Source: Heptranchias perlo (lineage: Eukaryota). Taken from it: a stretch of 64,000 nucleotides of DNA. Both the position numbers and the translations under genes were made by a program. Below, piece by piece: positions 1,813-61,027 of this stretch. The stretch spans positions 35,278,001 through 35,342,000 of the forward strand of contig NC_090349.1 in NCBI RefSeq assembly GCF_035084215.1. Direction: 5' to 3'. Numbering within the stretch: position 1 is the first letter of the stretch; every line of letters starts with the position of its first letter. Under the pieces are notes generated by a model, which was not told where the DNA came from, searched no databases, and was given only the letters and a program-made list of their open reading frames with translations.

Positions 1813-4800
1813 GAAGACAAGAAGGGATAACGCATCACGGTCACAGAGAATGTTGTATGTCACTTTGGTTAGGGTCATTTTGGTGCTGTGGGAGCGGTGG
1901 AAATCTCATTGGAAGGATTCAATCAGTGGTGTAAAAGAGATGGGCACATGCTTGGGAGGTGACAACTATAACACTCAGTGGTTCATCCTGAAAATGGGAG
2001 TGACTCTTGTTGTGAACATCTTACCATTTAACTTCAGAAAATGTACACTAAAATGTAAGTGCCAATATTCTGGAAAGCAACGATTGCTGTAAACCTAGTG
2101 TTTCAGAACAAAACGGACTACTCATTCATTCTTAAACAGCACAGCCTTTAATACTGTGCAAAAAAATGTAACAGATGCCTCCTTTGCCCAAATGCCTACA
2201 TGTTCTGAACAAGAAACGGGTATCTTTCTTGTTCAGAACATGTAGGTATTTGGTACCAAGCCTTCCAACAGACTATATTCAACTTACACCATCAATGACT
2301 CTTGAAATCTATTAATTTCAAGTTCCACACTGCTCGATCTCCACCTCAAAATGATTCCTACATATTCTGTGCAACCTCTCGAGAGGATTCCCTTCTCTTC
2401 ACCTTCAATCCATTTAGCTTTGGCCTCAACAAGATGCCACTGCATTTGGTTATGTCTCACACAGCTCCAAGTCACAAGACTATCACATCCAGTCTCATTT
2501 CTTGAGGGTCCATTAGATTCAGCTCTTCTATCCAGCTTAACATTCAACAGAATTTACTCGTGAGTCCACTACACATTCACAATGGCAGAGTACAGAACCA
2601 CATGTTTACAGAGCAAATGGTTGGCAAAAGTTTCAACTCTGCAGTAAAAACTAATGGGCTGCCAACAAAACAGAACTTAAAAAGATACTTACTGTTCCTT
2701 ATTACACATATGCATATGTTAGAAACAAACTGTTGACAAAAAGTTCAAAGTAGAAGCTTCTTCAACATGGGATCAGAGTCCAATGAATGAATCTTGGCAC
2801 CGAGATACTCTTCCTAGTTTAATGAATCAGTTACTCTCCTACAATAAATGGTCCACTATCGGTGTGTACTGGTATCCATTAGAAAACTAGTGTTAACCTC
2901 AAGTCTTGCAACGATCCACTTGAATTACATCTATTCATTACCTCCATCAAGCTCAACTTTTCTCTCCATAGCTCCAATCAATGGTGCTCCACTAGTGTCA
3001 ACTCTAGATACACTTGTCCCTGCAAATGTATACTTTATTACCTGCACTTGATCAGATATCTTCACAACGTAAACAGTTTGATGAGAAACTGTTCTTCCCA
3101 AGCAGAGGGAAGCGATATAGGGTAAATGATCAAGAATGATGCAACATAAGCTTATAACTTACGCACTCAACAATCACCTCCTCTCCTGGATGGTCTATTC
3201 TCTTAGGACAATTACTGGGGCCTCCTGTGTAGAAAATTTCAGCTTCGGTTGTCTGGCACCAATTTTTAATTAGCCTTGTAAGCAAGCAATGAAAGGAATA
3301 ATCTTAATCCAGAGGGCCTTCAGTATCTCTCATATTAATAAAGAGTTCCATACAAATGCCACCTTTAGCTTTCGCCAGCAATGTTTCAAAATTTCAATGT
3401 CTTTTCTGAACCCAATACATGTTTGGACCTCAACACACATCCCCCTCCATTTTAAGACAAACACTAAATTTCTGGCAACCACTTATTACATCTGTAAATA
3501 GCAGCAGAGACTGCACACTAAGTGCGATAATGGCAGCTGCTGTTGAGATCTAACTAATCCATGATCTGTGGAACTAGTTCCTTGAAATCTAAGACAGTTT
3601 TCTCACATGAAAGCTGTCTCAAACAAAATACATATTTGCCTGTTGTATCAGTTAATACTCACTTATGGGGAAAAATCATGATGTTGGCTGGGGGCTGTAT
3701 GCACTGTACAGCACAGTACCAAACTACAAATCAAGAAAATCCCATGTTCACTTTCTAGTCTGTGCTTAGTTAGCCCCAGTGCCCACAGGAGCTAGGGCCC
3801 CCACTCCTGATTGCTATACAAGGAACTTTTGGAAAGTTCACTTGACATCCGGAAAAGACAGGACCAGACTTGCCATGATGCCCTCCGCAGAATGACATTT
3901 TGGTTAGATACTACAGAGCTCCTGGTGCCTATAGTCGCATCCCTTCACAAATCATTGTTTTAAGAGTGGGGGGGGGAGGGGGAGAAAGTTGAAAGAATTG
4001 ACATTGTTGCACTTGTCTTGCGGCTATATCACCCATGCTTATTCAAAATATGCAATCTCTAAACAAATCCAAGTCTTCTGATCTCATCACAGCACCAATT
4101 ATGGATATGCTCCTTGGGATTTTTTTTTACTAGGCGCTATATAAATGCAAGTTGTTGATTATACTAACCAATTAAGCTGAATGCCAAATATTTCATTTAA
4201 ATAAGGTATTCTGCTCCATCTGGAGTTTTCCACATGGTTTACCTTACAGATGAACCACAAACAATTTTGTGACTTGATACAAAGTTACAATTTCATCTGC
4301 TGGAAAAAAATGTTTATATCGCCAAGAAAGAAAGTTGGCCTCCAGTGTCCCTATTTCAAAATATATATGAGAACACAAGCCAATTCTTTTGGCTGAAGAA
4401 TTGACATGTACACCTGCCATTTCTGCACCATTTTCACATAAAATAAGGACCAAAAAAAACATAAATTAGGTACATAAAAGAACAGAGTGGACAAAATAAA
4501 TTAAACTAAGCAACTAAACAGTTGACAACAAGCATGAACATCACCAGCACAAAATAAACACCAGCGAATTAGACAGTCTTCACACCACTCGTGTGGAGAG
4601 AGCTCACAAGCAATTTTGAAGTTTTGATTTCTTATGTCTATCATTTTGTCAAAAAGCCAGCTTAACAAAATGCAGATTCAAACTGATTATTCAACATGAG
4701 AGACTGAGGTCTTCAACTATAAATTTATAGTCATCTCTCAATTGCAAATTATGCTAATCTACATAAAGCTTTAGCAATCTTTAGGTTAGTCAGAAGAGCT

Positions 4801-5149
4801 TCTAGGTTAACAAGTCGTTGTCCCACCTTGCAGACAGCATCCTGCCTTGACAGAAATTGGTCTTTCTTTTGGTGGGCTCCAATAGATCCACACTTATGTT
4901 ATATATGTATATATCTCCAGTCTCTACAGATTAAAATATGTATATTAGTCTACTTCTGATAATTCAAAATTCTTTTACCCTAAAAAAAAATTTGAATTGA
5001 ACATCTTAGAATTGAGTGGAATATATACAAAAAAATAGAAATGTATAAAGTGCGAAAATATATTTAATGTATTTTTTAAGAAAACTGTGTTTTTTTTAAT
5101 ATATATATATTTTAAGTTGCACTTTCAAAAAAAAAATCCATGTATTGCT

Positions 5150-5720
5150 TTAACCTTAGCCCTGATACAGAGGCGTTTCTCTCTCGCCCTATCCGGATAC
5201 TCACGAGTTGGTGTGCAGGTATTCGAAGGTCAGTTGTGCTCGGTTTAGGCAATTGTAATTGGTACCAGCCATGGCGCCTTCCCTTCTCTCCTAACGCAGC
5301 ACCCGGGCTTCCGAACGCCTCCGCCGCGCTCAAGCTCAGGCTCTCCCTCAGGCTGCGAAACTCGGGCCTCTCTCGCTCTATCTTCGTGTATAAATATCCC
5401 AGCCACATTTATCGTTCATTTATTAACTAACGTGTTGGGGTTAAATCTAACCCGCCGCCTTTCTCTTTTCCTCACCCCTCGGCCCGGCTTCGGTGCCTCA
5501 GTCGACCGACCGGTTGCCGTGCCGTGCCCTACCCTGCCCGGTTACCTCACAGCTTTTCCCTCTAGCTCCCACGACCGCATCACCACGACACTCTTTCAAA
5601 AGTAACTGCAGCCACCGGCCGGACTGCGCAGGCGCGGCGCCTTTCCGCCGCTCCTCCCGAAAACTCGCGCGTGCGCCTCAGCAGCTCCCTCTACCAGAGT
5701 GCCAAGTCTCACTCCGTTTG
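5150..5720 (-). promoter_or_regulatory. CpG-island promoter of MORC2
   Basis: Sharp local CpG/GC enrichment. NRF1-like TGCGCAGGCGCG (~5625-5636) and CGCGCGTGCGC (~5666-5677). Possible upstream non-coding exon donor GAG|gtaacc at ~5541-5546. Confidence 0.75.
5205..5272 (-). CDS. MORC2: MORC family CW-type zinc finger 2, first coding exon (gene continues left of window)
   Basis: Minus strand ATG GCT GGT ACC ... AAC TC|gtgagt translates [22 protein letters not shown](S), matching the vertebrate MORC2 N-terminus ([23 protein letters not shown]). Strong Kozak context (GCCATGG), 68-nt phase-2 exon with canonical donor. Exon 2 (TTHEFLFG) was not found in 1-5200. Confidence 0.93.
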
Positions 5721-28000: not shown

Positions 28001-29226
28001 TCTACCCCCGATTGTAGTCCAGTAATTCCAGCTGGGAAGTGTGCAGTGTCCTTCATGGTAAAGTGGCCTGCAAATATTCAATGTCTAGAATAGCAACATG
28101 GGAGAGGTAACAGAGGTGAAATCTAGGACCGTCCTCATATTTCTTTCTAAAATAAATTCCTCAATTTACCATCAAATTTCAATTGTAGGATCAAAGGTCA
28201 GTTCTCCATGCGGCAGGTTGGATATTCACCTGATAGCAGATGAATATGAATGACAGTCCTGGCTTGGATTTGACCAACTCTCTTCCTTTATAGTTACTGG
28301 ATTGCACTATGCTCCACCATTTATTTACAGTGGGTTCTCAAAGCTTCATAAAAGCTCATAAACAGGCTGAGTGATATTGCCCCTCCCCCACTCCCTAAGG
28401 TTTACCACATGGAAAATTTACTTCCAGAGCTTCAGCACAACCTGATAGACTTTCCTCAGAGGGCAGGGACTATCAGCTGGGGAAAAAAAACAACAACCTG
28501 CAGAACTCAAGCAGAATCAAAGCACAAATCCAATCATCGTATAATTTAGCATCAGTGAAATTAAAACTTAACCTCAGGCTCTAGGACACCTGATGTAGAA
28601 TCAGTATGGGTGGAGGTAAGAAATAACAAGGAGCTGAAAACACTGGTGGGAGTAGTTTATAGGCTCCCTAGTAGTTATTTCTTGAATGATACTCTGTCCA
28701 ACAGTATAAGAGCAACTTGTAACAAAGGTAATGCAGTTATCGTGGGGGACTTTAACCTTCATATTGACTGAGCAAATCAAATTGGCAAAAGTAGTTTGGA
28801 GGACGAGTTCATGGAATGCATTCGAAACAGTTTCCTAGAACAATACATCATGGAACCAAGCAGGGAACAGGCTATTTTAGATCTTGTTTTGTGCAAGAGG
28901 CAGGGTTAATTAAGAATCTCATAGTAAGGGATCCTCTGGGGAAGAGTGATCATAATATGATAGAATTTCACATTGAGTTCGAGAGTGATGTACTTAAGTC
29001 CGAAACTAGAGTCTTAAACTTAAACAAAATCAATTACATAGGTATGAGGGGCGAATTGGCTACGGTTGATTGTGAAATTAGATTAAAAGATATGATGGTA
29101 GATAAGCAATGGCAAACATTTAAAGAAACATTTCATAATTCTCAACGAACATACATTCCATCGAGAAATAAAAACTCCACGGGAAAGTGATCCATCCATG
29201 GCTAACTAAAGAAGGATAGTATTAGG

Positions 29227-32200
29227 GTACGGTACGGTGGCATATTGGTTATGTTACTGGACTAGTAATCCGGAATCATGAGTTCAAATCCCGCCATGGC
29301 AGCTGGGGAATTTAAATTCAATTAATTAAATAAAATCTGGAATTAAAATACTCGTATCAGTAATGGTGGCCATGAATGTACCGGATTGTCGTAAAAACCC
29401 ATCTGGTTCACTAATGCCCTTTAGGGAAGGAAACCTGCCTTCCTTACCCGGTCTGGCCTATATGTGACTCCAGACCCACAGCAATGTCGTTGATTCTTAA
29501 TTGCCCTCTGAAATGGCCTAGCAGGCCACTCAGTTATAAAATCTCGCTAAAAAAAGTTACAATAAGAATAAAACCGAACGGACCACCCGGCATCAGAACA
29601 CTAGGCACCGGACACGACAAAGGCAAACCAAGCCCAGTCGACCCTGCAAAGTCCTCCTCACCAACATCTGGGGACTTGTGCCAAAATTGGGAGAGCTGTC
29701 CCACAGACTAGTCAAGCAACAGCCTGACATAGCCATACTCACAGAATCATACCTTTCAGCCAACATCCCAGACTCTTCCATCACCATCCCTGGGTATGTC
29801 CTGTCCCACCAGCAGGACAGACCTACCAGAGGTGGCAGTGCAGTGATATACAGTCAGGAGGGAGTGGCCCTGGGAGTCCTCAACACTGACTCCAGACCCC
29901 ATGAAATCTCATGGCATCAGGTCAAACATGGGCAAGGAAACCTCCTGCTGATTACCACCTACCGCCCTCCCTCAGCTGATGAATCAGTCTTCCTCCATGT
30001 TGAGCACCACTTGGAGGAAGCACTGAGGATAGCAAGGGCACAGAATGTACTCTGGGTGGGAGACTTCAATGCCCATCACCAAGAGTGGCTCCGTAGCACC
30101 ACGACTGACCGAGCTGGCCGAGTCCTGAAGGACATAGCTGCCAGACTGGGCCTGTGGCAGGTGGTGAGCGAACCAACACGAGGGAAAAACTTACTTGACC
30201 TCGTCCTCACCAATCTACCTGTCACAAATGCATCTGTCCATGACAGTATTGGTAGGAGTGACCACTGCACAGTCCTCGTGGAGACGAAGTCCCATCTTCC
30301 CACTGAAGACACCATCCAACGTGTTGTGTGGCACTTCCACCATGCTAAATGGGACAGATTCAGAACAGATCTAGCAGCTCAAAACTGGGCATCCATGAGG
30401 CGCTGTGGGCCATCAGCAGCAGCAGAATTGTATTCCAGCACAATCTGTAACCTCATGGCCCGGCATATTCCTCACTCTACCATTACCAACAAGCCAGGGG
30501 ATCAACCTTGGTTCAATGAGGAGTGTAGAAGGGTATGCCAGGCGTACCTAAAAATGAGGTGCCAACCTGGTGAAGCTACAACACAGGACTACATACATGC
30601 TAAACAGTGGAAGCAGCATGCTATAGATAGAGCTAAGCAATTCCACAACCAACGGATCAGATCAAAGCTCTGCAGTCCTGCCACATCCAGTCGTGAATGG
30701 TGGTGGACAATTAAACAACTAATGGGAGGAGGAGGCTCTGCAAACATCCCCATCCTCAATGATGGCAGAGTCCAGCACGTGAGTGCAAAAGACAAGGCTG
30801 AAGCATTTGCAACCATCTTCAGCCAGAAATGCCGAGTCGATGATCCATCTCGGCCTCCTCCCGATATCCCCACCATCACAGAAGCCAGTCTTCAGCCAAT
30901 TCGATTCACTCCACGTGATATCAAGAAACGGCTGAGTGCACTGGATACAGCAAAGGCCATGGGCCCCGACAACATCCGGGCTGTAGTGCTGAAGACTTGT
31001 GCTCCAGAACTAGATGCACCTCGAGCCAAGCTGTTCCAGTACAGCTACAACACTGGCATCTACCCGACAATGTGGAAAATTGCCCAGGTATGTCCTGTCC
31101 ACAAAAAGCAGGACAAATCCAATCCGGCCAATTACCGCCCCATCAGTCCACTCTCAATCATCAGCAAAGTGATGGAAGGTGTCGTCGACAGTGCTATCAA
31201 GCGGCACTTACTCACCAATAACCTGCTCACCGATGCTCGGTTTGGGTTCCGCCAGGACCACTCGGCTCCAGACCTCCAGACTTGGTCCAAACATGGACAA
31301 AAGAGCTGAATTCCAGAGGTGAGGTGAGAGTGACTGCCCTTGACATCAAGGCAGCATTTGACCGAGTGTGGCACCAAGGAGCCCTAGTAAAATTGAAGTC
31401 AATGGGAATCATGGGGAAAACTCTCCAGTGGCTGGAGTCATATCTAGCTCAAAGGAAGATGGTAGTGGTTGTTGGAGGCCAATCATCTCAGCCCCAGGGC
31501 ATTGCTGCAGGAGTTCCTTAGGGCACTGTCCTAGGCCCAACCATCTTCAGCGGCTTCATCAATGACCTTCCCTCCATCATAAGGTCAGAAATGGGGATGT
31601 TCGCTGATGATTGCACAGTGTTCAGTTCCATTCGCAAATAATGAAGCAGTCCGAGCCCGCATGCAGCAAGACCTGGACAACATCCAGGATTGGGCTGATA
31701 AGTGGCAAGTAACATTCGCGCCAGACAAGTGCCAGGCAATGACCATCTCCAACAAGAGAGAGTCTAACCACCTCCCCTTGACGTTCAACGGCATTACCAT
31801 CGACAAATCCCCCACCATCAACATCCTGGGGGTCACCATTGACCAGAAACTTAACTGGACCAGCCACATAAATACTGTGGCTACAAGAGCAGGTCAGAGG
31901 CTGGGTGTTCTGCAGCGAGTGACTCACCTCCTGACTCCCCAAAGCCTTTCCACCATCTACAAGGCACAAGTCAGGAGTGTGGTGGAATACTCTTCATTTG
32001 CCTGGATGAGTGCAGCTCCAACAACACTCAAGAAGCTCGACACCATTCAGGACAAAGCAGCCCGCTTGATCGGCACCCCATCCACCACCCTTCACCACCA
32101 GCGCACAGTGGCTGCAGTGTGTACCATCCAAAGGATGCACTGCAGCAACTCGCTAAGGCACCTCCCAAACCCGCGACCTCTACCACCTAGAAAGACAAGA

Positions 32201-32523
32201 GCAGCAGGTACATGGGAACAACACCGCCTGCACGTTCTGGAAGGGAGTTCCAGGATTTTGACCCAGCGACGATAAAAGAACGGCGATATGTTTCCAAGTC
32301 ACACACCATCCCGACTTGGAAACATATCGCCGTTCTTTTATCGTCGCTGGGTCAAAATCCTGGAACTCCCTTCCTAACAGCACTGTGGGAGAACCTTCAC
32401 CACACGGACTGCAGCGATTCAAGAAGGCGGCTCACCACCACCTTCTCAAGGGCAATTAGGGATGGGCAATAAATGCTGGCCTCGCCAGCGATGCCCACAT
32501 CCCATGAACGAATAAAAAAAAAA
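29227..32523 (+). mobile_element. SINE-headed single-ORF LINE (HE1 head + HER1-like APE-EN/RT ORF + shared 3' tail + polyA)
   Basis: TSD ATTAGG (29221-29226, 32524-32529). A box TGGCATATTGG 29238-29248 and B box GTTCAAATCC 29282-29291. EN motifs LTNIWGL, LTESYL, TYRPP, VGDFN, LDLVL, SDH; RT motifs NYRPIS, DIKAAFDRV, FADD; polyA end. Confidence 0.92.
29648..32240 (+). pseudogene. disrupted ORF2 (APE endonuclease + reverse transcriptase) of the SINE-headed LINE
   Basis: Open from KVLLTNIWGL to 31309. Frameshift near 31275, TAG at 31519-31521, further indels downstream. Confidence 0.88.
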
Positions 32524-35446
32524 ATTAGGTTAAAAGAAGAGGCTTATAATAAGAATAGTAAGTCTGAGGATTGGGAGAGTTTCAAAAACCAACAAACCAT
32601 GACTAAAAAATTGATAAAGAGGGAGAAAATAGAATGAGAGTAAACTAGCAAGAAATATAAAAATACATTGTAAGAGCTTCTACAAGTATATAAAAAGGAA
32701 GAGAATAGTGGAAGTAAACAAATGTGGGTCCCTTCGAGGCTGAGACAGTATAAATTATAATGGGGGAATAAGGAAATGGCAGAGACGTTGAACAGATATT
32801 TTGTGTCTGTCTTCACAGTAGAAGGTACAAAGAAAATACGAGAAATAGTGGGGAACCAAGGGTCTAATGAGAGTGAAGAACTTAAAGAAATAAATATTAG
32901 TAAAGAAATTAAAGGGACCAAAAGCCAACAAATCCCCAACACCTGACGGCCTACATCCTAGGGTTCTAAAAGAGGAGGCTGTAGAGATAGTGGAAGCATT
33001 GGTTGTGAACTTCCAAAATTTCCTACATTCTAGAACAGTCCCAGTGGACTGGAAGTTAGCAAATGTAACACCGCTATTCAAGAAAGGAGGGAGAGAGAAA
33101 ACAGGGAACTACAGGCCAGTTAGCCTGACATCAGTAGTAAGAAAAATGCTAGAACCTATTATTAAGGACGTGGTAACAGGCCACTTAGAAAATCATAATA
33201 TGATTAGACAGAGTCAACATGGTTTTATGAAAGGGAAATAATGTGTGACAAACCTATTAAGAGTTTTTTGAGGATGTAACTAGCAGGGTAGAAAAAGGGG
33301 AACCAGTGGATGTAGTATATTTGGATTTTCAAAAGGCATTCGATAAGGTGCCACACAAAAGTTTACTACACAAGATAAGGGCGCATGGGGTTGGGGGTAA
33401 TATATTAGCATGGATAAAGGATTGGTTAACAGTCAGAAAACAGAGAGTAGGAATAAACGGGTCATTTTCAGGTTGGCAGGCTGTAACTGGTGGGGTGCCG
33501 CAAGGATCGGTGCTGGGGCCTCAGCTATTTTACAATCTACATTAATGACTTACACGAAGGGACCGAGTGTAATGAATCCAAGTTTGCTGATGATACAAAG
33601 CTAGGTGGGAAAGTAAGCTGTGAGGAGGACACAAAGAGTCTGCAAAGGGATATAGATAGGTTAAGTGAGTGGGCAAGAAGGTGGCAGATGGAGTACAATG
33701 TGGGGAAATGTGAGGTTATTCACTTTGGTAGGAAGAATAGAAAAACAGAATATTTTTTAAATGGTAGGAAACTATTAAATGTTGGTGTTCAGAGGGAATT
33801 GGATGTCCTTGTTCATGAAATACAGAAAGTTAACATGCAGGTACAGCAAGCAATTAGGAAGGCAAATGGTATGTTGGCCTTTATTGCAAGGGGGATGGAG
33901 TACAAGAGTAAGGTAGTCTTGCTGCAATTGTACGGGGCTTTGGTGAGACCACACCTGGAGTACAGTTTTGGTCTCCTTACCTAAGGAAAGATATACTTGC
34001 CTTAAGGTGGTGCAACAAAGGTTCACTAGATTGATTTCTGGGATGAAAGGGTTGTCTTATGAGGAGAGATTGAGTAGAATGGGCCTATACTCTCTGGGGT
34101 TTAGAAGAATGAGAGGTGATCTCATTGAAACATATAAGACTCTGAGAGGGCTTGACAGGGTATATGCTGAGAGGCTGTTTCCCCTGGCTGGAGAGTCTAG
34201 AACTAGGGAGCAGTCTCAGGATAAGGGGTCAGCCATTTAGGACTGAGATGAGGAGAAATTTCTTCACTCAGAGGGTTGTGAATCTTTGGAATTCTCTACC
34301 CCAGAGGGCTGTGGATGCTCAGTCGTCGAGTATATTCAAGACTGAGATTGATAGATTTTTGGACTTTAAGGGAATCAAGGGATATGGGGATCGGGCAGGA
34401 AAGTGGAGTTGAGGTCGAAGGTCAGCCATGATCTTATTGAATGGCGGAGCAGGCTCGAGGGGCTATATGGCCTATTCCTACTCCTTATGTTCTTACGTAC
34501 ATTGCCCTGGAGGAAGTAGCAAATTCTTATTTGTAAGTAATACCATGGTTCCACACAACAGGAAGAGCTGGAAACAGCTCTTAGGCCTCCACAAAAGCCA
34601 AACTATAGCCAGCTGCTGAAAGGTATGAAAAATGGTTTGAGATGGCTGGCTCTCCAATTTTCCTTCCCTCTACATGGGGAGCAGATGATCGCCACAAAGC
34701 CTTTGGTAGCATGGCTAAGATGAGGAAATCATGGTGTACAAAATAGGTTTATATCTGCCATTCCCTCCCATTTTGTGTACAGCATGTTGAAATTCAAATA
34801 TGCTGTGAAACTGCATTTGTTTCATTCAGCAAAAGGCTTCCTTCAGTGTTCTCCACATTCCCTTGTTCTCTTCGAGACATGTGCAAATCATGGCTAACAG
34901 GGTCTATGAATTGCCCAGTCCCTGGGTCTGGCTGTTTTTCAGTGAAACTAGCCAGAAGGCGTCTGGTACACTCCCAGTGGGGAAGTGCCTGGCTCCCACT
35001 TACTATTGTCAACAACATACAGCAGCTTAACCATTGTAAATACATCCCGAGGTGTTTCAAAAAGTGGGGGTCAGACCCAAGCAGGAGTAGAAAGAGTTAG
35101 CAGAGGTGGCTGAAGGTATGGTCAGAAATCAGCGACTCAGCAGTGTGAGGGATGTGTAAATCCACATCTACAATATTATACTGATCATTGGTGTGGTAAC
35201 ATACTGTGGCACTGTGCTTCTATCATCCTATTCCACCATATTTCTAATTCTTTGTGCTTGACACTTACACCTGCTCCATCCAATCCCATTTAAAGCTGCA
35301 TCACTAAGATTTTGCAGAATTGCATCTGCCCTGACATATAGGGCATAGCTAAAGATTGTTACCGCCATTCTGGCAGCAGCCATAACAAAAATATTCACAT
35401 TCTTCGAGTGGAAGTTAATTTTAATTAATTGATGTGCATCTGCGTA

Positions 35447-41505: not shown

Positions 41506-41599
41506 ATTGTATAAAACAACAGCAAACCATACCTGAACAAAGTGTGACAGACAGGCAGGCAGGCAGACAGACAGACAGAGATAATGTTGTATCAATTGA

Positions 41600-42954
41600 T
41601 TTTTTTATTTGTTCAAGGGATGTGGCCGTCGCTGGCAAGGCCAGCATTTATTGCCCATCCCTATTTGCCCTTGAGAAGGTGGTGGTGAGCTGCCTTCTTG
41701 AACTGCTGCAGTGAAGGTTCTCCCATAGTGCTGTTAGGTAGGGAGTTCCAGGATTTTGACCCAGCGACGATGAAGGAACGGCGATATATTTCCAAGTCAG
41801 GATGGTGTGTGACTTGGAGGGGAACGTGCAGGTGGAGTTGTTCCCATGTGCCAGCTGCCCTTGTCCTTCCAGGTGGTAGAGGTCGCGGGTTTGGGAGGTG
41901 CTGTCGAAGAAGCCTTGGCAAGTTGCTGCAGTGCACACTGCAGCCATGGTGTGCCGGTGGTGAAGGGAGTGAATGTTTAGGGTGGTGGATGGGGTGCCAA
42001 TCAAGCGGGCTGCTTTGTCCTGGATGGTGTCGAGCTTCTTGAGTGTTGTTGGAGCTGCACTCATCCAGGCAAGTGGAAAGTATTCTATCACACTCCTGAC
42101 CTGTGCCTTGTGGATGGTGGTAAGGCTTTGGGGAGTCAGGAGGTGAGTCACTCGCCGCAGAATACCCAGCCTCTGACCTGCTCTTGTAGCCACAGTATTT
42201 ATGCGGCTGGTCCAGTTAAGTTTCTGGTCAATGGTGACCCCCAGGATGTTGATGGTGGGGGATTAGGCAACGGTAATGCCATTGAATGTCAAAGGGAGGT
42301 GGTTAGACTCTCTCTAGTTGGAGGTGGACATTGCCTGGCACTTGTCTGTTGCGAATGTTACTTGCCACTTATAAGCCCAAGCCTGGATGTTGTCCAGGTC
42401 TTGCTGCATGCGGGTACGGACTGCTTCATTATCTGAGGGGTTGCGAATGGAACTGAACACTGTGCAATCATCAGTGAACATTCCTATTTCTGACCTTATG
42501 ATGGAGGGAAGGTCATTGATGAAGCCGCTGAAGATGGTTGGGCCTAGGACACCGCCTTGAGGAACTCTTGCAGCAATGTCCTGGGGCTGAGATGATTGGC
42601 CTCCAACAACCACTACCATCTTCCTTTGTGCTAGGTATGACTGCAGCCACTGGAGAGTTTTCCCCCTGATTCCCATTGACTTCAATTTTACTAGGGCTCC
42701 TTGGTGCCACTCTCGGTCAAATGCTGCTTTGATGTCAAGGGCAGTCACTCTCACCTCACCTCTGGAATTCAGCTCTTTTGTCCATGTTTGGACCAAGTCT
42801 GGAGGTCTGGAGCCGAGTGGTCCTGGCGGAACCCAAACTGAGCATCGGTGAGCAGGTTATTGGTGAGTAAGAGCCGCTTGATAGCACTGTCGATGACACC
42901 TTCCATCACTTTGCTGATGATTGAGAGTGGACTGATGGGGCAGTAATTGGCCGG
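41600..42954 (-). mobile_element. 5'-truncated second copy of the HER1-like LINE family
   Basis: High similarity to 31125-32523 (VQTWTKELNSRGEVRVTALDIKAAFD, same 3' tail and polyA). Confidence 0.92.
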
Positions 42955-44597
42955 TAAAATTTATGATTTTTGGCAAAGGTAGCAGAGTCAGATGACTGGA
43001 TTAATTTTATCCATTGTGTTTCCTTCTCCAATTCTCATGACTTTCTCACTTTAGCTCCTCTTGTAGTCCCAGGACGACACCTGCTGTTACCTCTCCCAAG
43101 TGCCCATTCTTCATGTGCAAACTTGAACATTGGTGGACAGTTCCACTGTAGGCGACCACAACCAGGCATGCCCATCTGATGTTCCCACAGGTGCACTTCA
43201 CAGCAGGATCACTGGCTAGTGATCTACCACAGAGAATCCTGGTCAACTAATTTAGGTTCTGGAAAATCACTTTTGGACTGATTAACTTGATTTCAGATCA
43301 AACTCACACCATACAGCAGTTTATCTATAGAATTTATCTTAACCATTGCCATATATAATGAGTTTAAACCCTCTTTATTCTACTCTGAAATTACCTGATC
43401 ACTCTGAACCAGATGCAGACTTACCCTGATCGGCTTCTATCGTGATACATTAAGTGAGATACACTCTAACACAACAACAGTTTTGCTACTGTTTACATGA
43501 ATGAAATGTCTCCATGAAATTAAATTTTGTGCAAAACTACAAGGAGCCTCAGATTGCATGGAATATTTTTCCATTATTTCCCAATTCACAGTAGAAGTTG
43601 GATGTGCAAAAATCAAGAAAAGGCAGGGTGGGGAGATTATCAGGGAAACCTGTATGACTTAAAGTAAATATAACCGGGGCAACCATTTCAATAAAACTAC
43701 CTACTCACTGCAGTTATGCCACGTCCAATGCTGCAACCAGATTCTCTCCCGTCCAACCTCAAGGATGGCAACAGAGATTTTGGCACTACCAGAGAAGGGG
43801 CATGGTGGAAAGTGTGCACCCAGGGCCTCAGGGTCAGGAATCAGAGAAGGAGGAGGCAGCAGGCAGTACTGAAAGAACTGCCTATCTTGGAGATCCAGTT
43901 GGGAGGTCTGAGGTTAGCAGCTTGGAAAAACTCAATCTGAGGTAAATAAATTGAATAGGTAAGTTGAATTGTGCACAAAAGTGTGACAGAATAGCCCGAT
44001 AAACAGACATGGTGGAAACAGCTTGAAAGGAGGAAGTAACTGTTACTTGAAATGAATAAAAACGAAACAACCAGCTGTGTTTTCCATCCTAATTTGAGCA
44101 TTACATTTCATGCAAATTTTTTGACATTGATTGACTCAAATTTCACCTTAATTAAAAAAGATCATGGGTTTTCATTTTATCTAGGTTAGGGGTGAACATA
44201 TCACAATTATTAAAATAGGGGTTTATACTGTTTTTCTTAAAACTCAAAGCTCACTCAAATTTTCCAATTTTATTGAAATGAGATGCACAAAATTCCTTCT
44301 CAATGCCACAATGACTTTGATAATGTTATTTCATAATTATAACACAAGTGATAAGATCAGCACAGTGAAATATGAAGTTATGTCATCAACAACCAAAAAG
44401 TAAAATTCTCAATTTCTTTACAGCTTGTTCTTGGTTTGAAAAGGTTACCGTCTTCACAAAATTATTTCATACAATTATAAAAGATTTGCCAAGGAAATTT
44501 GGTGAATGCACTATTTATATCACTCTGAAATCATTTGCAAATAGTCACGTTTGTAAATAAGGGAAAAAACTATGTGAAACTTTTTCATCTATCAACT

Positions 44598-45720: not shown

Positions 45721-46185
45721 GAGCAGTCATTGAAACATATAAATTCTGAGGGGGCTTGACAGGGTAGATGCTGAGAGGTTGTTTCCCCTGGCTGGGGTGC
45801 CTAGAACTAGGAGGCATAGTCAGGGGATAAGGGTCAGCCTTTTAAGAGTGAGATGGGGAGGAATTTCTTCATGCAAAGGGTTGTGAATCTTTGGAATTCT
45901 CTACCCCAAAGAGCTGTAGATACTGAGTCATTGAGTATATTCAAATGTAAGGAATCTTACAACACCAGGTTATAGTCCAACAGTTTTATTTGAAAATCAC
46001 AAGCTTTCGGAGGCTTTCTTCTTCGTCAAGTGAGTGTCGAGATTCATTGAAAATTACTGCATATATAGTCATAGAACAATGCCTGGTGATTACAGTCATG
46101 ATGTGGAGATGCCGGTGATGGACTGGGGTTGACAATTGTAAACAATTTTACAACACCAAGTTATAGTCCAGCAATTTTATTTTAA

Positions 46186-46226
46186 ATTCACAAGCTTTCG
46201 GAGACTTCCTCCTTCCTCAGGTAAAT
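46186..46226 (-). ncRNA. minimal type I hammerhead ribozyme (inverted copy)
   Basis: Exact reverse complement of 46899-46939. Confidence 0.78.
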
Positions 46227-46898
46227 GTTCAGGAGCTCCTTGAAGCCTACGCATTTATACATATAGAACAATACATGGTGTTTACAGACTGCCCCTGCAA
46301 CTGCCCGTTGCCAAGGCAATCACCGTGTTCAGACAGAGAGGTGTCACCTGCAGAACCCCCGAATACACATTCAACAAAAAAACAAACAGGAAAACGCTGC
46401 GACAACGGATGAACGGACACCGCGCAACAATCGCCAAACAGGAGGGTTCCCTCCCAGTCGGGGAACACTTCAGCAGTCATGGACATTCATCCACCGACCT
46501 TCGGGTAAGCGTACTCCAAGGCGGCCTTCGAGACACACGACAACGCAAAATCGTCGAGCAGAAATTGATAGCCAAGTTCCGCACCCTTGAGGACGGCCTC
46601 AACCGGGATCTTGGGTTCATGTCACGCTACACGTTACCCCACCAGCGAACAAATGTTATCTGTTTTTAATATAATGGGTCATTTGCTGGCTTTCTCTGCC
46701 TTCCGGATGTTTCTGCCTCTCTCTGTTTTTTTTTCCTGTTTGTTTTTTTGTTGAATGTGTATTCGGGGGTTCTGCAGGTGACACCTCTCTGTCTGAACAC
46801 GGTGATTGCCTTGGCAACGGGCAGTTGCAGGGGCAGTCTGTAAACACCATGTATTGTTCTATATGTATAAATGCGTAGGCTTCAAGGAGCTCCTGAAC

Positions 46899-46939
46899 AT
46901 TTACCTGAGGAAGGAGGAAGTCTCCGAAAGCTTGTGAAT
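46899..46939 (+). ncRNA. minimal type I hammerhead ribozyme (PLE-type)
   Basis: ATTTAC-CTGAGGA-A-GGAGG/aag/TCTCC-GAAA-GCTT-GTGAAT. Confidence 0.78.
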
Positions 46940-47973
46940 TTAAAATAAAATTGCTGGACTATAACTTGGTGTTGTAAAATTGTTTACAATGGTGATTACA
47001 GATAATCTTTCCAACTGCCCGTTATCAAGGCCATCAAATTAATTGAATAGTGTTCAGACAGAGAAACCTTAGATACCCCAGACAACTGAATATACAAACG
47101 GCCAGAACCAAAGAAAGAGAGGGAGAGAGAGAGAGAAACATCCAAAAGGAAGAGAAAGAGAGAGAATGACCAGTTGTATTAAAAACAGATAACTTTTTCC
47201 CCCCCTGGTGGGGTTACATGTAGCGCGACATGAACCCAAGATCCCGGTTGAGGCCGTCCTCATGGGTGCGGAACTTGGCTATCAATTTCTGCTCGACGAT
47301 TTTGCGTTGTCTTGTGTCTCGAAGGCCGCCTTGGAGAACGCTTACCCGAAGATCGGTGGCTGAATGTCCTTGACTGCTGAAGTGTTCCCCGACTGGGAGG
47401 GAACCCTCCTGTCTGGCGACTGTTGCGTGGTGTCCGTCCAGTGGCGAGACCATGCAGACACAAGACAACGGATGAACGGACACCGCGCAACAATCGCCAG
47501 ACAGGAGGGTTCCCTCCCAGTCGGGGAACACTTCAGCAGTCAAGGACATTCAGCCACCGATCTTCGGGTAAGCGTTCTCCAAGGCGGCCTTCGAGACACA
47601 AGACAACGCAAAATCGTCGAGCAGAAATTGATAGCCAAGTTCCGCACCCATGAGGACGGCCTCAACCTGGATCTTGGGTTCATGTCGCGCTACACGTAAC
47701 CCCACCAGGTGGAAAAAAAGTTATCTGTTTTTAATACAACTGGTCATTCTCTCTCTTTCTCTTCCTTTCGGATGTTTCTCTCTCTCTCTCCCTCTCTTTC
47801 TTTGGTTCTGGCCGTTTGTATATTCAGTTGTCTGGGGTATCTAAGGTTTCTCTGTCTGAACACTATTCAATTAATTTGATGGCCTTGATAACGGGCAGTT
47901 GGAAAGATTATCTGTAATCACCAGGCATTGTTCTATGACTATATATGCGGTAATTTTCAATGAATCTCGACAC

Positions 47974-48010
47974 TCACCTGACGAAGGAGAAAGCCTCCGA
48001 AAGCTTGTGA
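47974..48010 (+). ncRNA. minimal type I hammerhead ribozyme (PLE-type)
   Basis: TCAC-CTGACGA-A-GGAG/aaagc/CTCC-GAAA-GCTT-GTGA: conserved core, stem I TCAC/GTGA, stem II, and palindromic AAGCTT in place of stem III. Confidence 0.8.
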
Positions 48011-48399
48011 TTTTCAAATAAAACTGTTGGACTATAACCTGGTGGTGTAAGATTCCTTACATTTGTACACCCCAGTCCATCACCAGCATCTCCACATCAG
48101 GAGTATATTCAAGGCTGAGATTTTTGGACTCTAGGGGAATCAATGGATATGGGGATCCGGCAGGAAAGTGGAGCTGAGGTCAAAGATCAGCCCTGATCTT
48201 ATTGAATGACGGAGCAGGCACGAGAGGCTGTACGGCCTACTCCTATTTCTTATGTTCTTAGACGGTTCGAGGATGGGTATTTTGAGAAGTGGGCTGACAG
48301 ACGATTGACAATATCAGCTAGCATAGAGCCCAGGAAGGTGAGGAGAGTTGGAGGGAGGAGATCGCTCCCAGAAATTGGTTCCCCGAACGCTAATGTTTC

Positions 48400-48810
48400 G
48401 CACAAAAACGGGCGATAATTTCTCCCCTCTGTTTCGAGTGCAGTCTGCATCTAATCAATTTAAAATCTAACAGCGGAGCGAGCGTCTGTCACCAGGCAGG
48501 GCCCCGCATCCAGGCCCAGGCTCCTCCAGCTTTCACCGCCGGGTCTGAAATCTGTATCGTTTCTTTGAGTAAAACGCCCCGTCTGAAGAGAACACAAAGG
48601 GACACGTCTCCTCACTGAAGTTTTGGGTTTTCTTACTTCTGTAGTTCGGCTACTGAACGCCCCGCCCGCCAAGTCACTCACCTCAGGCGCTGCGCCATCA
48701 AACCCCGCCTGCCGTCGTGGCGGATCGCTCCGCCTTGCTGCAAAACACCGGATATTGCGACTGGTCACCAGCGGGGCACGTGGCTCACAACCTAGAGCGT
48801 GCTAATAGCA
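48400..48810 (-). promoter_or_regulatory. CpG-island promoter and probable 5' exon of the TMEM248-like gene
   Basis: CpG-rich island. Consensus donor CTGAG|gtgagt at ~48676-48681, E-box CACGTG at 48777-48782, GC boxes. The next identifiable gene downstream on this strand is the TMEM248-like gene; the link is inferred. Confidence 0.6.
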
Positions 48811-48999
48811 GGCAGAGAGGGTCAGTCGGTGCAGTGAGACCATTGCCAGGGCAGAGAGGGTCAGTCGGTGCAGTGAGACCATTGCCAGGCAGAGAGGGTC
48901 AGTCGGTGCAGTGAGACCATTGCCAGGGCAGAGAGGGTCAGTCGGTGCAGTGAGACCATTGCCAGGCAGAGAGGGTCAGTCGGTGCAGTGAGACCATTG
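48809..48999. repeat. minisatellite, 5 copies of a 38/39-bp unit GCAGAGAGGGTCAGTCGGTGCAGTGAGACCATTGCCAG(G)
   Basis: Unit starts at 48812, 48851, 48889, 48928 and 48966. Confidence 0.95.
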
Positions 49000-56967: not shown

Positions 56968-57207
56968 CTGCAACGAAAAAGGAAAGTCAAAGTCAATCTT
57001 TATGGAAATGATTGCCTGCAAACTAATTTTTAAAAATGTATTATCCCAGACATTAAAAGGAAGAAAAGCCACATGTTAACAGTATTGTTTTCTTTTGCGC
57101 TCCATATGTAAACAGGAGCCTAACCCACCCATCTCTTTCACTGCAGTTGCAGACTTCAGCAAAAAGACAAGCACTGCTATTTGATTAGTTAATCCATAGA
57201 CCCCCAC

Positions 57208-57351
57208 CTTACACCTGTGACGGCCAGTTAGCAGGATAAGCACTGTCCCTGGGGTGATGGATGCACGCAGATGCCTCTTGTGCTGGCTGAAAGGTTTGTT
57301 ACCGTGGCTAATCTTCTTGCGGGGGACATCTTCAGTGGGGTAATACCTTGG
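57208..57351 (-). CDS. RPL6: RPL6 exon 4
   Basis: ttacag|[48 protein letters not shown]|gtgggg. 144 nt. Confidence 0.97.
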
Positions 57352-58238
57352 CTGTAAAAACAAACAAGACCAATATGCAGAAATATTATATTGTATAGTC
57401 ACTAGTAGACAACTGCGTTCCATAAAATCTCACGGTGGTGATGTGTTTTTTGAAAAAATATAAAGGGATAGTTTTCATTCTGGTTGTGCTACTAAGTAAC
57501 TTTGTTACTAAAAATTCAATTTAATATGGGTATGTACCATTCATTAACAAAAAGACACTGGAACTTTAGTGTTCTGACTTTCAGAATCTGACCCAAGTTT
57601 TTAAAAATAACGCCCCCCCCCCCCCCTCCGCTGAACTCTTCCCAATTCCTCACTGTTCCATGAGCATCACCTGCCCTGCAGTACCATACCTGAGCTATCA
57701 TTCAGGTACAAGCCTCAGCATTGACAGCACCTGTCAGCAGATTCCATGACTGCAAGGAGCATCACATCCAAGTCTGATCCGGTCCTCATTTGCACATGTG
57801 CAGTCAACAGGGATTGCTAGATAGCAAACAGGAGTGGGAACCCTAATCCATTTCCTGCTCCCACTGCCCTAGCTAATTTAGGACATACCATGGATTGAAC
57901 CCAAGATCTTCTTGATCTGTATGGCTCAGCTATTAACCAGATAAACTCACCATGTTATGGGGGGGGAACAGAACTACAGTTAACCTAACATTACACCACC
58001 GCACTACCAGGGCTGTCATTTGGAATCAGAACCCCTAGCAGCCAGGCAATTCCAACACAGAACTGCTGTAATAGCACATCAACCTCATTTGGAATAAAAG
58101 TCACTAGGGCACTGTAAAAATGCTCCCAGCATTACACAACACCTCAATTTAAAAAAACCACAAGGCTGAAATGAAATCTAAATTCTTCCCACCCAAGAAC
58201 ATTTAAAAAAATCTCAAAATAGGAGGGATTTGAGTTAC

Positions 58239-58337
58239 CATTTTCCGGACTTTGACTACACGGCTACCACCATTTTTGTCTCCTCCAACAGGCTTAGTGA
58301 TTGTAAAGGGCGTTTTTTCCTTCAGCTTCTTCTCGAT
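58239..58337 (-). CDS. RPL6: RPL6 exon 3
   Basis: tttcag|[33 protein letters not shown]|gtaact. 99 nt. Confidence 0.97.
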
Positions 58338-58597
58338 CTGAAAAGGAATGATGCAAGCCGTTAACTTTTCCTTTTCTGTGATTTGTTCGATCACAAAACA
58401 CGTAAAACCAACCTCCAGGATCAGCACCAATCAAATGTACAGAACTGCACACAAAGATCAAGCGTCCCAACAATTTAACTAAAATCCTTTTGGGCGTCAA
58501 GTTAAATGACTCCACTGCAGATTACTACACTGGTGTGCTTTATTCCACGGTACACTCCCAACTTTCAGAGCCCATTCAAGATCTGATTTCTCCTTAC

Positions 58598-58771
58598 CTT
58601 GGTCTCAGGAGCCTTGTATTTGCGCTTGTACAGGGCTCTCCTAGCATACATGACAGAGCGGGAATATCTGCCAATGCCCCGGGCCAGCACAGGGTTGCGA
58701 CTAGCATGGCGCCGCGGTTTCTTCTGTTCCTTTTTTTCATCTGCCATCGGTTCCTGTTTCTCTCCTGCCAT
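58598..58771 (-). CDS. RPL6: 60S ribosomal protein L6 (eL6), coding exon 1 (gene exon 2)
   Basis: ggcag|[61 protein letters not shown]|gtaagg; the [15 protein letters not shown] motif of eL6. 174 nt. Confidence 0.97.
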
Positions 58772-59191
58772 CTGCCAAAGAGAGAAAACTTGGGCTTTAA
58801 AATAGGCATGCACAAAAAATAGTGACTTGAAGGCAGTGTATGCCAATGTGCCACCAGTACAATCAACAAATACGGTGAAATTTGGAATTTAAGTTCAGAT
58901 GTGCAAAACAGACCCTTCTGGAGCATTCAATCAGTCCTGTGAGAAGCACTTAGTGATGAAAGATCGTGGGTATTTTGAAGGTTGAATACACCAAAACCAA
59001 ACACCAATCACACACAACTGAGTAGCAAAGTCCCGAATTAACCAATTATCAATTGTCAGACAACCTGTCTTGAAAATTGCCATCTAAATAATTTTGAGGC
59101 CATAGGGAGAACAATTTGGAGAAGGAATGTGCATTGGCTTGCGGTGATCCACAGGGATGCTTAGATGCAACTTTCTGTCCTAGATTGTCAA

Positions 59192-59320
59192 GATGTGGAG
59201 ATGCCGGTGATGGAATGGGGTTGACAAATGTAAAGAATCTTACAACACCAGGTTATAGTCCAACAATTTTATTTGAAAATCACAAGCTTTCGGAGATTAC
59301 CTCCTTCGTCAGGTGAGTGA
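59192..59320 (-). mobile_element. 129-bp Penelope-like 3' end insertion in RPL6 intron 1
   Basis: TSD CTAGATTGTCAA (59180-59191, 59321-59332); homologous to 47970-48098. Confidence 0.9.
59280..59316 (-). ncRNA. minimal hammerhead ribozyme, sense to RPL6 pre-mRNA
   Basis: TCAC-CTGACGA-A-GGAGG/taa/TCTCC-GAAA-GCTT-GTGA. Confidence 0.78.
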
Positions 59321-60206
59321 CTAGATTGTCAATACAGAGGGTTGTCACTGCTTTGTTCATACAGCTTAGTATTTTATCAGTTAAATCCCACACATCATCT
59401 TCTCTATGCAGAAAGCACAAAGGAACCATTTCTCAGCCTAAAACATTTTATTGTGTATACTTCACCAAATAAAATTTAAAGTTGAGCATCTACAGAATAT
59501 GGGGAGACATATTAGCAGGTACTACTCATCCAAGCAGTAAGGGAGAGATAAAATCAGAAAATGCTGCAAACATCCAGCAGGTCAGGTAATAAGATCTTTG
59601 TTCAGCAAATTGGCCACATAAGAATTCCAGTGTCAATTAGCATTGATTATTCAGCATGGAAAATGGAATGAAATAATTGTACATATTGGAAAGGGGAGCA
59701 GTTTACTATAGTTGATTAAAAATTGTAAGACTTGATACAGGGCACTCACATTCAGGATAGCTTATACCCTTCGCATTGGGAGCATTAAAGACATTAATAT
59801 TTTAATGTTAAGGGCCAGTCCCCACGCGCAACAGTAGCACTGGCTAACCCCATGCAAGAAGACTCCCAGCCCCTGGCTGCTCCTACTTCCAGTCGCAGGC
59901 CTCTCCCTCACACACCGGTAACTCCTTTTCTACTCCACCCACCGAGATTTCTAGCATAACACATGGCTCAGAAACCGCCATTACACCGCTTCTCGCACCG
60001 TACCCTGCCGCTTCCCCCACTACCTCCAAAAAGAGCCCCACAAACATCACCATAAATCCTCCTTAACCACAAATATAGGCTAATCCGAACAGCTGACACT
60101 GCGCACCGCGCTTTCCGTGTGGTGCTAGATGTTAACAAAGCTTCCCAGCCCCGATGGAAACCGATGCTCTGTCCCATAGTTCGTAACAAAACTCCGCCAT
60201 TCTTAC

Positions 60207-60627: not shown

Positions 60628-60836
60628 TGTAAACAATTTTACAACACCAAGTTATAGTCCAGCAATTTTATTTTAAATTCACAAGCTTTCGGAGGCTTCC
60701 TCCTTCCTCATTTACCTGAGGAAGGAGGAAGCCTCCGAAAGCTTGTGAATTTAAAATAAAATTGCTGGACTATAACTTGGTGTTGTAAAATTGTTTACAA
60801 TTGTCAACCCCAGTCCATCACCGGCATCTCCACATC
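60628..60836 (+). mobile_element. 209-bp palindromic Penelope-like insertion upstream of RPL6
   Basis: TSD TTAATTAACTGC (60616-60627, 60837-60848). Perfect inverted arms 60628-60710 and 60717-60799 plus a unique 3' tail. Same family as element B. Confidence 0.92.
60710..60750 (+). ncRNA. minimal hammerhead ribozyme
   Basis: ATTTAC-CTGAGGA-A-GGAGG/aag/CCTCC-GAAA-GCTT-GTGAAT. Confidence 0.75.
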
Positions 60837-61027
60837 TTAATTAACTGCCTCAAGATCACAATATGACTTGTATGAGAAATGGAAAAATTCAACATTGGTG
60901 CACTAGGTGTTCTAAAGCACATGGTTGGGGATTTTTTACTCTACAATCAACTTTTTTATATTTGACCGGAAAGTGCTTAATGCTAACAGTGGATGTCCAA
61001 AGTGGGCACTGTTGTAAGGTGAGCTTG

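Follow-up and report, generated by a model that had tools for sequence, protein, structure and literature searches.

The DNA analysed here (the window) is a 64,000-nt stretch of Heptranchias perlo contig NC_090349.1, in which a LINE of the CR1 group lies inside a canonical CR1 on the plus strand. A second, 5′-truncated copy of the LINE and an old SINE-like element with related ends are also present. The features used below are listed with their window coordinates and strand.

1484–1815, plus: old SINE-like element in which the head, the 5′ body and the 3′ tail are all those of the Zenon LINE (bounds approximate)
28580–34485 (28580–29226 and 32525–34485), plus: host canonical CR1, split by the Zenon insertion and used as a control (bounds approximate)
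28891–32255, plus: T4-free stretch, also TVTTT-free over 28887–32256, the longest of its kind on either strand of the window
29221–29226, plus: left target-site duplication, 5–6 bp, the first A ambiguous with the tail
29227–32524, plus: full-length Zenon LINE, copy 1, decayed, bracketed by the target-site duplication and of a length that fits published consensuses
29231–29301, plus: tRNA-derived head (Thr-AGT-like, called by ARAGORN), with A box 29238–29248 and B box 29280–29290 placed by pattern
29302–29539, plus: conserved 5′ UTR body, common to Zenon and the older SINE-like copy in the window
29540–32459, plus: single endonuclease-RT ORF, without ORF1, ending in TAG at 32457–32459
32239–32374, no strand assigned: inverted duplication of local extent, not present in copy 2, which gave rise to the T4 at 32256 and a TGTTT near 32289
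32457–32524, plus: short 3′ UTR containing a stem-loop, two AATAAA motifs (32468, 32511) and a poly-A run at 32514–32524, without an internal terminator
32524–32529, plus: right target-site duplication
41600–42954, minus: second Zenon copy, 5′-truncated, 94% identical over 1320 aligned columns

Identity and layout of the inserted LINE

Judged by its sequence, the element at 29227–32524 is an elasmobranch Zenon LINE (CR1 group), rather than a canonical CR1 or L2; the family itself, Zenon of sharks and rays, is already known. Three lines of evidence lead to this assignment. Two 5′ motifs of the window match 6 and 7 consensus rows, which are exclusively elasmobranch Zenon; the named close homologues are shark and ray proteins, 65–87% identical; and the structure is ORF1-less and poly-A-tailed. 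In a tree constructed without any Zenon-labelled sequence, the RT falls in a 23-row clade (FastTree support 96) together with lepidopteran single-ORF proteins, with the host CR1 placed elsewhere, and a quick IQ-TREE run is concordant on this grouping (support 89–92). Zenon of sharks and rays has been described as ORF1-less and poly-A-tailed, and its consensuses (CarCar, HypSab, RhiTyp, ScyCan and SquAca) resemble the window element in both respects, in the shared 5′ motifs and in a length of about 3.3 kb, the published range being 2.9–3.3 kb and copy 1 measuring ∼3.3 kb (PMC13343379). Lepidopteran Zenon and its SIDE Persaeus present a comparable arrangement of a single-ORF element of 3.1–3.7 kb with a poly-A tail and a short derivative that carries both ends (PMC6740152).

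The 5′ UTR extends about 350 nt beyond the head, for a total of about 420 nt before the APE domain, which lies at about 29663–30274 (Pfam Exo_endo_phos). No long ORF is found upstream of the APE-RT ORF, in keeping with the single ORF of Zenon, as is the poly-A tail, which is A11 at 32514–32524 in copy 1 and A7 in copy 2. Two frameshifts, one near 31277 and the other near 31637, interrupt the ORF of copy 1, as do a stop codon and the inverted duplication. The 3′ stem-loop has a fold z of −3.0 in copy 1 and −3.7 in copy 2. The 5′ UTR fold is ordinary (z −0.7), and neither a ribozyme nor another known RNA family was identified in the 5′ UTR with Rfam. A perfect 10-bp complement between 29498–29507 in the 5′ UTR and 32449–32458 at the ORF end could pair the RNA ends and so close the Zenon RNA.

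A target-site duplication of 5–6 bp brackets 29227–32524, which is a single insertion inside the canonical CR1. This bears on the possibility of a chance chimera at one locus, in which a SINE inserted beside a truncated LINE. A SINE-like element with the same head does exist in the window, but a single target-site duplication runs from head through tail, and the same head is joined to the ORF in seven consensuses from five species, structures that already contradict a local chimera; we find this explanation hardly credible.

The tRNA-type head and its distribution

The head of copy 1 is called as tRNA-like by ARAGORN at 29231–29301 and can be aligned with a tRNA-Thr(AGT) gene from one of the related LINE loci described below (L071), although the Rfam tRNA match is weak (16.8 bits, E 1.3, below gathering). 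By ARAGORN and by pattern, with Rfam below gathering, the element thus carries the tRNA-derived head with A and B boxes that typifies SINE2 elements; its ORF of about 920 codons in 3.3 kb is at odds with the short, non-coding character of that class. The A-box motif is located within the first 25 nt of all seven elasmobranch Zenon consensuses, which represent five species. Six B-box 11-mers, compared with the first 400 nt of each of about 1,000 CR1-group consensuses, match five rows, all of them elasmobranch Zenon. Three other Zenon heads, two from hagfish and one from coelacanth, lack the tRNA-type head and contain T4+ runs (by eye, first 400 nt). As far as consensus sequences can tell, the A-box/B-box head is family-wide in elasmobranch Zenon. 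It looks like an elasmobranch acquisition, because the lepidopteran Zenon derivative Persaeus, which carries the Zenon 5′ end, is described as having neither tRNA homology nor a Pol III promoter (PMC6740152).

The first 400 nt of the seven elasmobranch consensuses contain no T4 or TVTTT, as counted in the three Squalus heads and judged by eye in the other four. We give the T4-free heads little weight by themselves, as 5 of the 19 non-Zenon rows among rows 896–917 are also T4-free over this length. ARAGORN was also run on 60 of the 80 related loci, where it found one tRNA (L071), with many contigs beginning too near the ORF for a head to be judged. That tRNA is about 1.9 kb upstream of the match and is followed by a T5, and was taken as an ordinary tRNA gene.

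The head and body of the LINE align with 1470–1760, within and just before the old SINE-like element, at 74% column identity. The A-to-B box spacing of the SINE-like element is short, like that of the window LINE, at about 20 nt below the Squalus consensus (by eye). A separate tail fragment lies at 765–839.

Among known systems, the SINE2 group, including the bipartite RTE/Vingi SINEs (PMC5786205) and the T+ SINEs B2, Dip and Ves (PMC8466645), shares the tRNA head with A and B boxes, the LINE-type 3′ tail, and AATAAA with an A tail. These SINEs are short and described as non-protein-coding, whereas here the head sits on a 3.3-kb coding element whose tail has no terminator. RTE-1_DAn and related elements are LINEs noted as containing tRNA-like sequence, but belong to the RTE clade (PMC5786205). 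The Cassandra, Helenus and Ajax TRIMs are retroelements with Pol III promoters from small-RNA genes but, unlike Zenon, are non-autonomous LTR elements without an ORF (PMC10886601). The main text of PMC13343379 describes neither the head nor a terminator deficit in elasmobranch Zenon, and mentions tRNA, Pol III or a promoter nowhere. The literature searched, which excluded Repbase and Dfam entries, deposited full consensuses, preprint supplements and subscription papers, yielded no account of an autonomous LINE transcribed by Pol III, nor of any tRNA head in shark Zenon. Within that literature, the Pol III-type promoter and the terminator deficit described next would be new for elasmobranch Zenon.

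The sense-strand deficit of T runs

The shortest working Pol III terminators in experiments on mammalian SINEs are TTTT and TVTTT, while TTT alone terminates poorly (PMC8466645). The sequence-only reading had reported no run of four or more T on the plus strand at 29227–32255, which is correct: the gap runs from 28891 to 32255, or 3365 nt, where the next-longest is 1141 nt. Its statement that the second copy is also free of sense-strand T4 holds as well, with no A4+ on the plus strand over 41517–42955 (1439 nt, next 969). When TVTTT is included, the longest motif-free stretch on each strand is found at the same two locations, with lengths of 3369 and 1441 nt against 746 nt for the next, and the sense strand of copy 2 has neither motif. 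A-runs are indeed common in the element (16 A4+ runs), and the flanking CR1 does carry T-runs, with two T4+ in 647 nt on one side and nine in 1961 nt on the other. Within the element, T4 occurs at just two positions, 32256–32259 and 32336–32339, as reported, the first in the inverted duplication and the second where copy 2 differs.

The depletion of T4 that these counts were taken to imply did not withstand codon-shuffled controls. Up to 32255, an end point defined by the first T4 and so chosen after the fact, the observed zero compares with 1.5–2.1 expected under four codon-aware nulls (P 0.09–0.17); a base shuffle gives 3.9 expected (P 0.016) and a dinucleotide shuffle 2.0 (P 0.11). Over the whole ORF to the stop at 32459, with the T4 at 32336 included and the inserted arm 32237–32291 (one T4, one TGTTT) left out, one T4 is observed against 1.8–2.2 (P 0.32–0.43). 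The absence of T4 alone is not significant, and one copy provides too little power.

The wider deficit is clearer. The combined set of T4 or TVTTT, to which TVTTT was added after the T3 deficit had been seen, occurs 0 times in 811 codons against 2.6–4.8 expected (P 0.0015–0.034, four nulls), and once over the whole ORF, counting the T4 at 32336, against 3.3–5.0 (P 0.017–0.098). The antisense strand has 16 such motifs against 15.8–17.6 expected, and the host CR1 has 4 against 5.2–6.0. With amino-acid class, third-base pools and CpG context fixed, T3+ runs number 6 against 13.4, and none of 2500 shuffles is as low; the whole ORF has 7 against 11.5–17.2 (P 0.0004–0.03). The weakest T3 null shuffles synonymous codons within next-base class; its P is 0.057 for 811 codons and 0.03 for 916. 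At silent T/C sites not before G, T is used at 2 of 37 sites where it would make a T3+ run and at 81 of 306 elsewhere (P 0.002), and the same test is not significant in the host CR1 (13/25 vs 54/86). The broader T-run deficit is real and confined to the sense strand. Degenerate windows of 5-of-6 and 5-of-7 T are not significantly depleted (P 0.19–0.40). An amino-acid-level signal was rejected as evidence: the Phe content of 2.5% is close to the lowest among 70 homologues, yet near relatives are similar, with 2.7–3.1%.

Other LINE ORFs served as controls. A contig scan gave 80 loci with related LINEs, of which the 74 with at least 450 codons were kept and 6 dropped, with 150 shuffles each. As these loci (L001–L080) show, intact animal-type CR1-group LINE ORFs are present in many species-representative microbial assemblies, probably through host contamination; the control loci are most likely animal-host contigs binned into microbial assemblies. 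None of the 74 control ORFs is free of T4, nor is any free of the terminator set. Terminator density in the controls, which are mutually related and not independent (six within Zenon's own clade), has a minimum of 1.85/kb and a median of 10.0, compared with 0–0.36 in Zenon copy 1. The T3 z averages −0.03 in the controls, with a minimum of −2.1, and is −2.8 to −3.2 in Zenon, and the NTT odds ratio is 0.53 in Zenon against a control minimum of 0.56. On all T-run measures other than T4 itself, Zenon ranks as the most extreme of the 75 LINE ORFs. The synonymous-shuffling null is somewhat liberal: for the terminator set, 9 of 74 controls have P ≤ 0.05 and for T4, 10 of 74 do, and the stratified null puts 1 of 74 controls at this level for the terminator set. 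The T4 comparison is limited by L074, whose match at 3501–5426 is 30% T and has a single T4 in 1755 nt (7.1 expected), and L052, L071 and L076 are also below their expected T4.

These comparisons bear on an alternative in which the element is an ordinary Pol II LINE from a lineage of T-poor, C-rich composition, its tRNA head a captured passenger or of service to a SINE derivative only, and the T4 gap the product of composition and chance. The T content of the Zenon ORF, 19.7%, is the lowest of the 75 ORFs, and the T4 tests (P 0.09–0.43) agree with such an account. A fit on T content predicts about 8 terminator motifs for the Zenon ORF, a value extrapolated in a set where only one locus (L001, a relative within the clade) matches the T content and no control is a vertebrate LINE of such composition. 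L001 can be read in both directions: its 2.7-kb ORF has a single T4 at the same composition, but also 15 T3 and 5 terminator motifs, with a T5 and a T6 in the 3′ UTR, where Zenon has 6–7 T3 and 0–1 terminator motifs. Some nulls also show a shortage of C-run and G-run motifs (C3 P 0.025, G4 P 0.047; P 0.004 for the C motif by dinucleotide shuffle and 0.035 for the G motif), and the host CR1 is itself T3-poor under plain synonymous shuffling (P 0.013–0.015). The T3 deficit, however, survives fixing amino acids, third-base pools and CpG context, and a passenger head need not retain both boxes in five species. Even with the AATAAA motifs in its favour, we judge this alternative unlikely.

Selection against U runs for some other RNA-level reason, under Pol II transcription, is a further alternative; candidates are splice-acceptor tracts, proteins that bind or sense U-rich RNA, RT slippage, and avoidance of the element's own endonuclease target. 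TT and TTT are depleted too, beyond runs of terminator length, and TTT alone is a poor terminator (PMC8466645); the mild C-run and G-run deficits suggest some general avoidance of runs. Avoidance of TTT would, however, also follow from TVTTT being a terminator. Slippage or self-targeting predicts a loss of A-runs, yet A3 and A4 are at expectation, and the 74 relatives, which are under the same pressures, centre on the z of −0.03 given above. Since such a pressure also leaves the head unexplained, we regard it as improbable.

What stands of the earlier proposal, that the ORF was purged of terminators as Pol III transcription of it would require, is therefore its broader form: the T4/TVTTT set and T3 are depleted on the sense strand only, the ORF leaves 74 others behind in terminator density, T3 z and NTT avoidance, and the head is family-wide. 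The argument as written, from T4 alone, was underpowered.

The second copy and the T4s near the 3′ end allow some of this history to be followed. Taken alone, copy 2 is weak evidence (terminator set P 0.04–0.11, T3 not significant) and is not independent of copy 1. The 72 differences between the copies within the ORF are spread evenly across codon positions (24, 21 and 27) and thus indicate neutral decay. The arms of the inverted duplication, 32239–32301 and 32312–32374, are identical at 62 of 63 positions, so the duplication is probably younger than the Zenon insertion. Two synonymous C/T changes separate the T4 at 32336–32339 from the sequence of copy 2; this T4 predates the duplication, as its complement sits in the duplicated arm. 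It is compatible with a post-insertion change, since simulated neutral decay of 3% produces 0.46 new T4 per copy, where 1 and 0 are observed. It may also belong to the source lineage, the ancestral state being one that two copies cannot show. A frameshift near 31277 is common to both copies, in a tract (31124–31410 and about 42670–42954) that is low in divergence (6/286 vs 73/1034 mismatches, P 0.001, with a post hoc boundary). Gene conversion between inverted neighbours and a defective subfamily moved in trans are alternative explanations of this tract.

Proposed Pol III transcription of Zenon

We propose that Pol III transcribes the full-length 3.3-kb Zenon LINE RNA, a reading to which we attach a probability of roughly 0.6. 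Its observed basis is the head at the 5′ end of the insertion, the single ORF, the poly-A tail and the sense-strand T-run deficit. The tRNA-derived A-box/B-box head would be the internal promoter of this single-ORF element, where TFIIIC is predicted to bind and Pol III to start. The polymerase would read through the ORF and tail and stop at the first flanking T run, which for copy 1 would be 32797–32802. Alu transcription by Pol III ends in the same way. Copies with an internal T4 or TVTTT would lose the 3′ RT-binding hairpin from the truncated RNA, and master lineages would in this way be purged of such motifs at silent sites. A SINE with the same ends as Zenon may then ride on the Zenon enzyme. 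In the published view, transcription of non-LTR elements is by Pol II, and the length of SINEs is limited by the processivity of Pol III (PMC10886601), and the AATAAA at 32468 fits Pol II polyadenylation equally well.

In a more far-reaching form of the proposal, one uncapped 3.3-kb Pol III RNA would be both the endonuclease-RT mRNA and the insertion template, with cap-independent translation, across sharks and rays; this is tentative, and we lean somewhat against it. The least supported step in the scheme is protein synthesis, as the RNA would be uncapped and copy 1 has no in-frame AUG before the endonuclease. In the endonuclease frame of copy 1, 29540–30395 is without AUG, and the first, at 30395, is past the domain. 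Six of the seven consensus heads have an upstream AUG, which by eye lies out of frame in HypSab but seems to be in frame in SquAca-2; copy 1 reads ATA at this position, in the +1 frame. Inspection of the seven heads by eye showed no conserved signal for frameshifting from the frame of the upstream AUG into that of the endonuclease. Pol III promoters can drive some reporter expression, with uncapped RNA (PMC5703244). The protein could instead derive from Pol II read-through of other Zenon copies.

LINEs are set apart from SINEs on the premise that LINEs are mRNAs made by Pol II, and SINEs short, non-coding RNAs made by Pol III. If Pol III transcription of Zenon is correct, this rule would be broken by an abundant LINE family of vertebrates whose Pol III promoter is conserved and whose ORF is purged of terminators. 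In the more far-reaching form of the proposal, Zenon would be SINE and LINE at once and its transcript a natural Pol III mRNA in a vertebrate. The family would also be a natural system in which to examine Pol III read-through over long distances and the translation of uncapped RNA, and SINEs could arise when a Pol III LINE undergoes internal deletion, instead of by addition of a head.

Elsewhere in the window, ribosomal protein L6 exons lie at 57079–58888 on the minus strand. A cluster of related repeats, both direct and inverted, occupies 45942–48111, 59187–59327 and 60628–60838, with near-palindromes at 46990–47923 and 60628–60799; its ORFs, which have no Pfam match, resemble a Penelope-type endonuclease. 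A very homogeneous tandem array of five copies of a 38–39 bp unit is located at 48809–48999.
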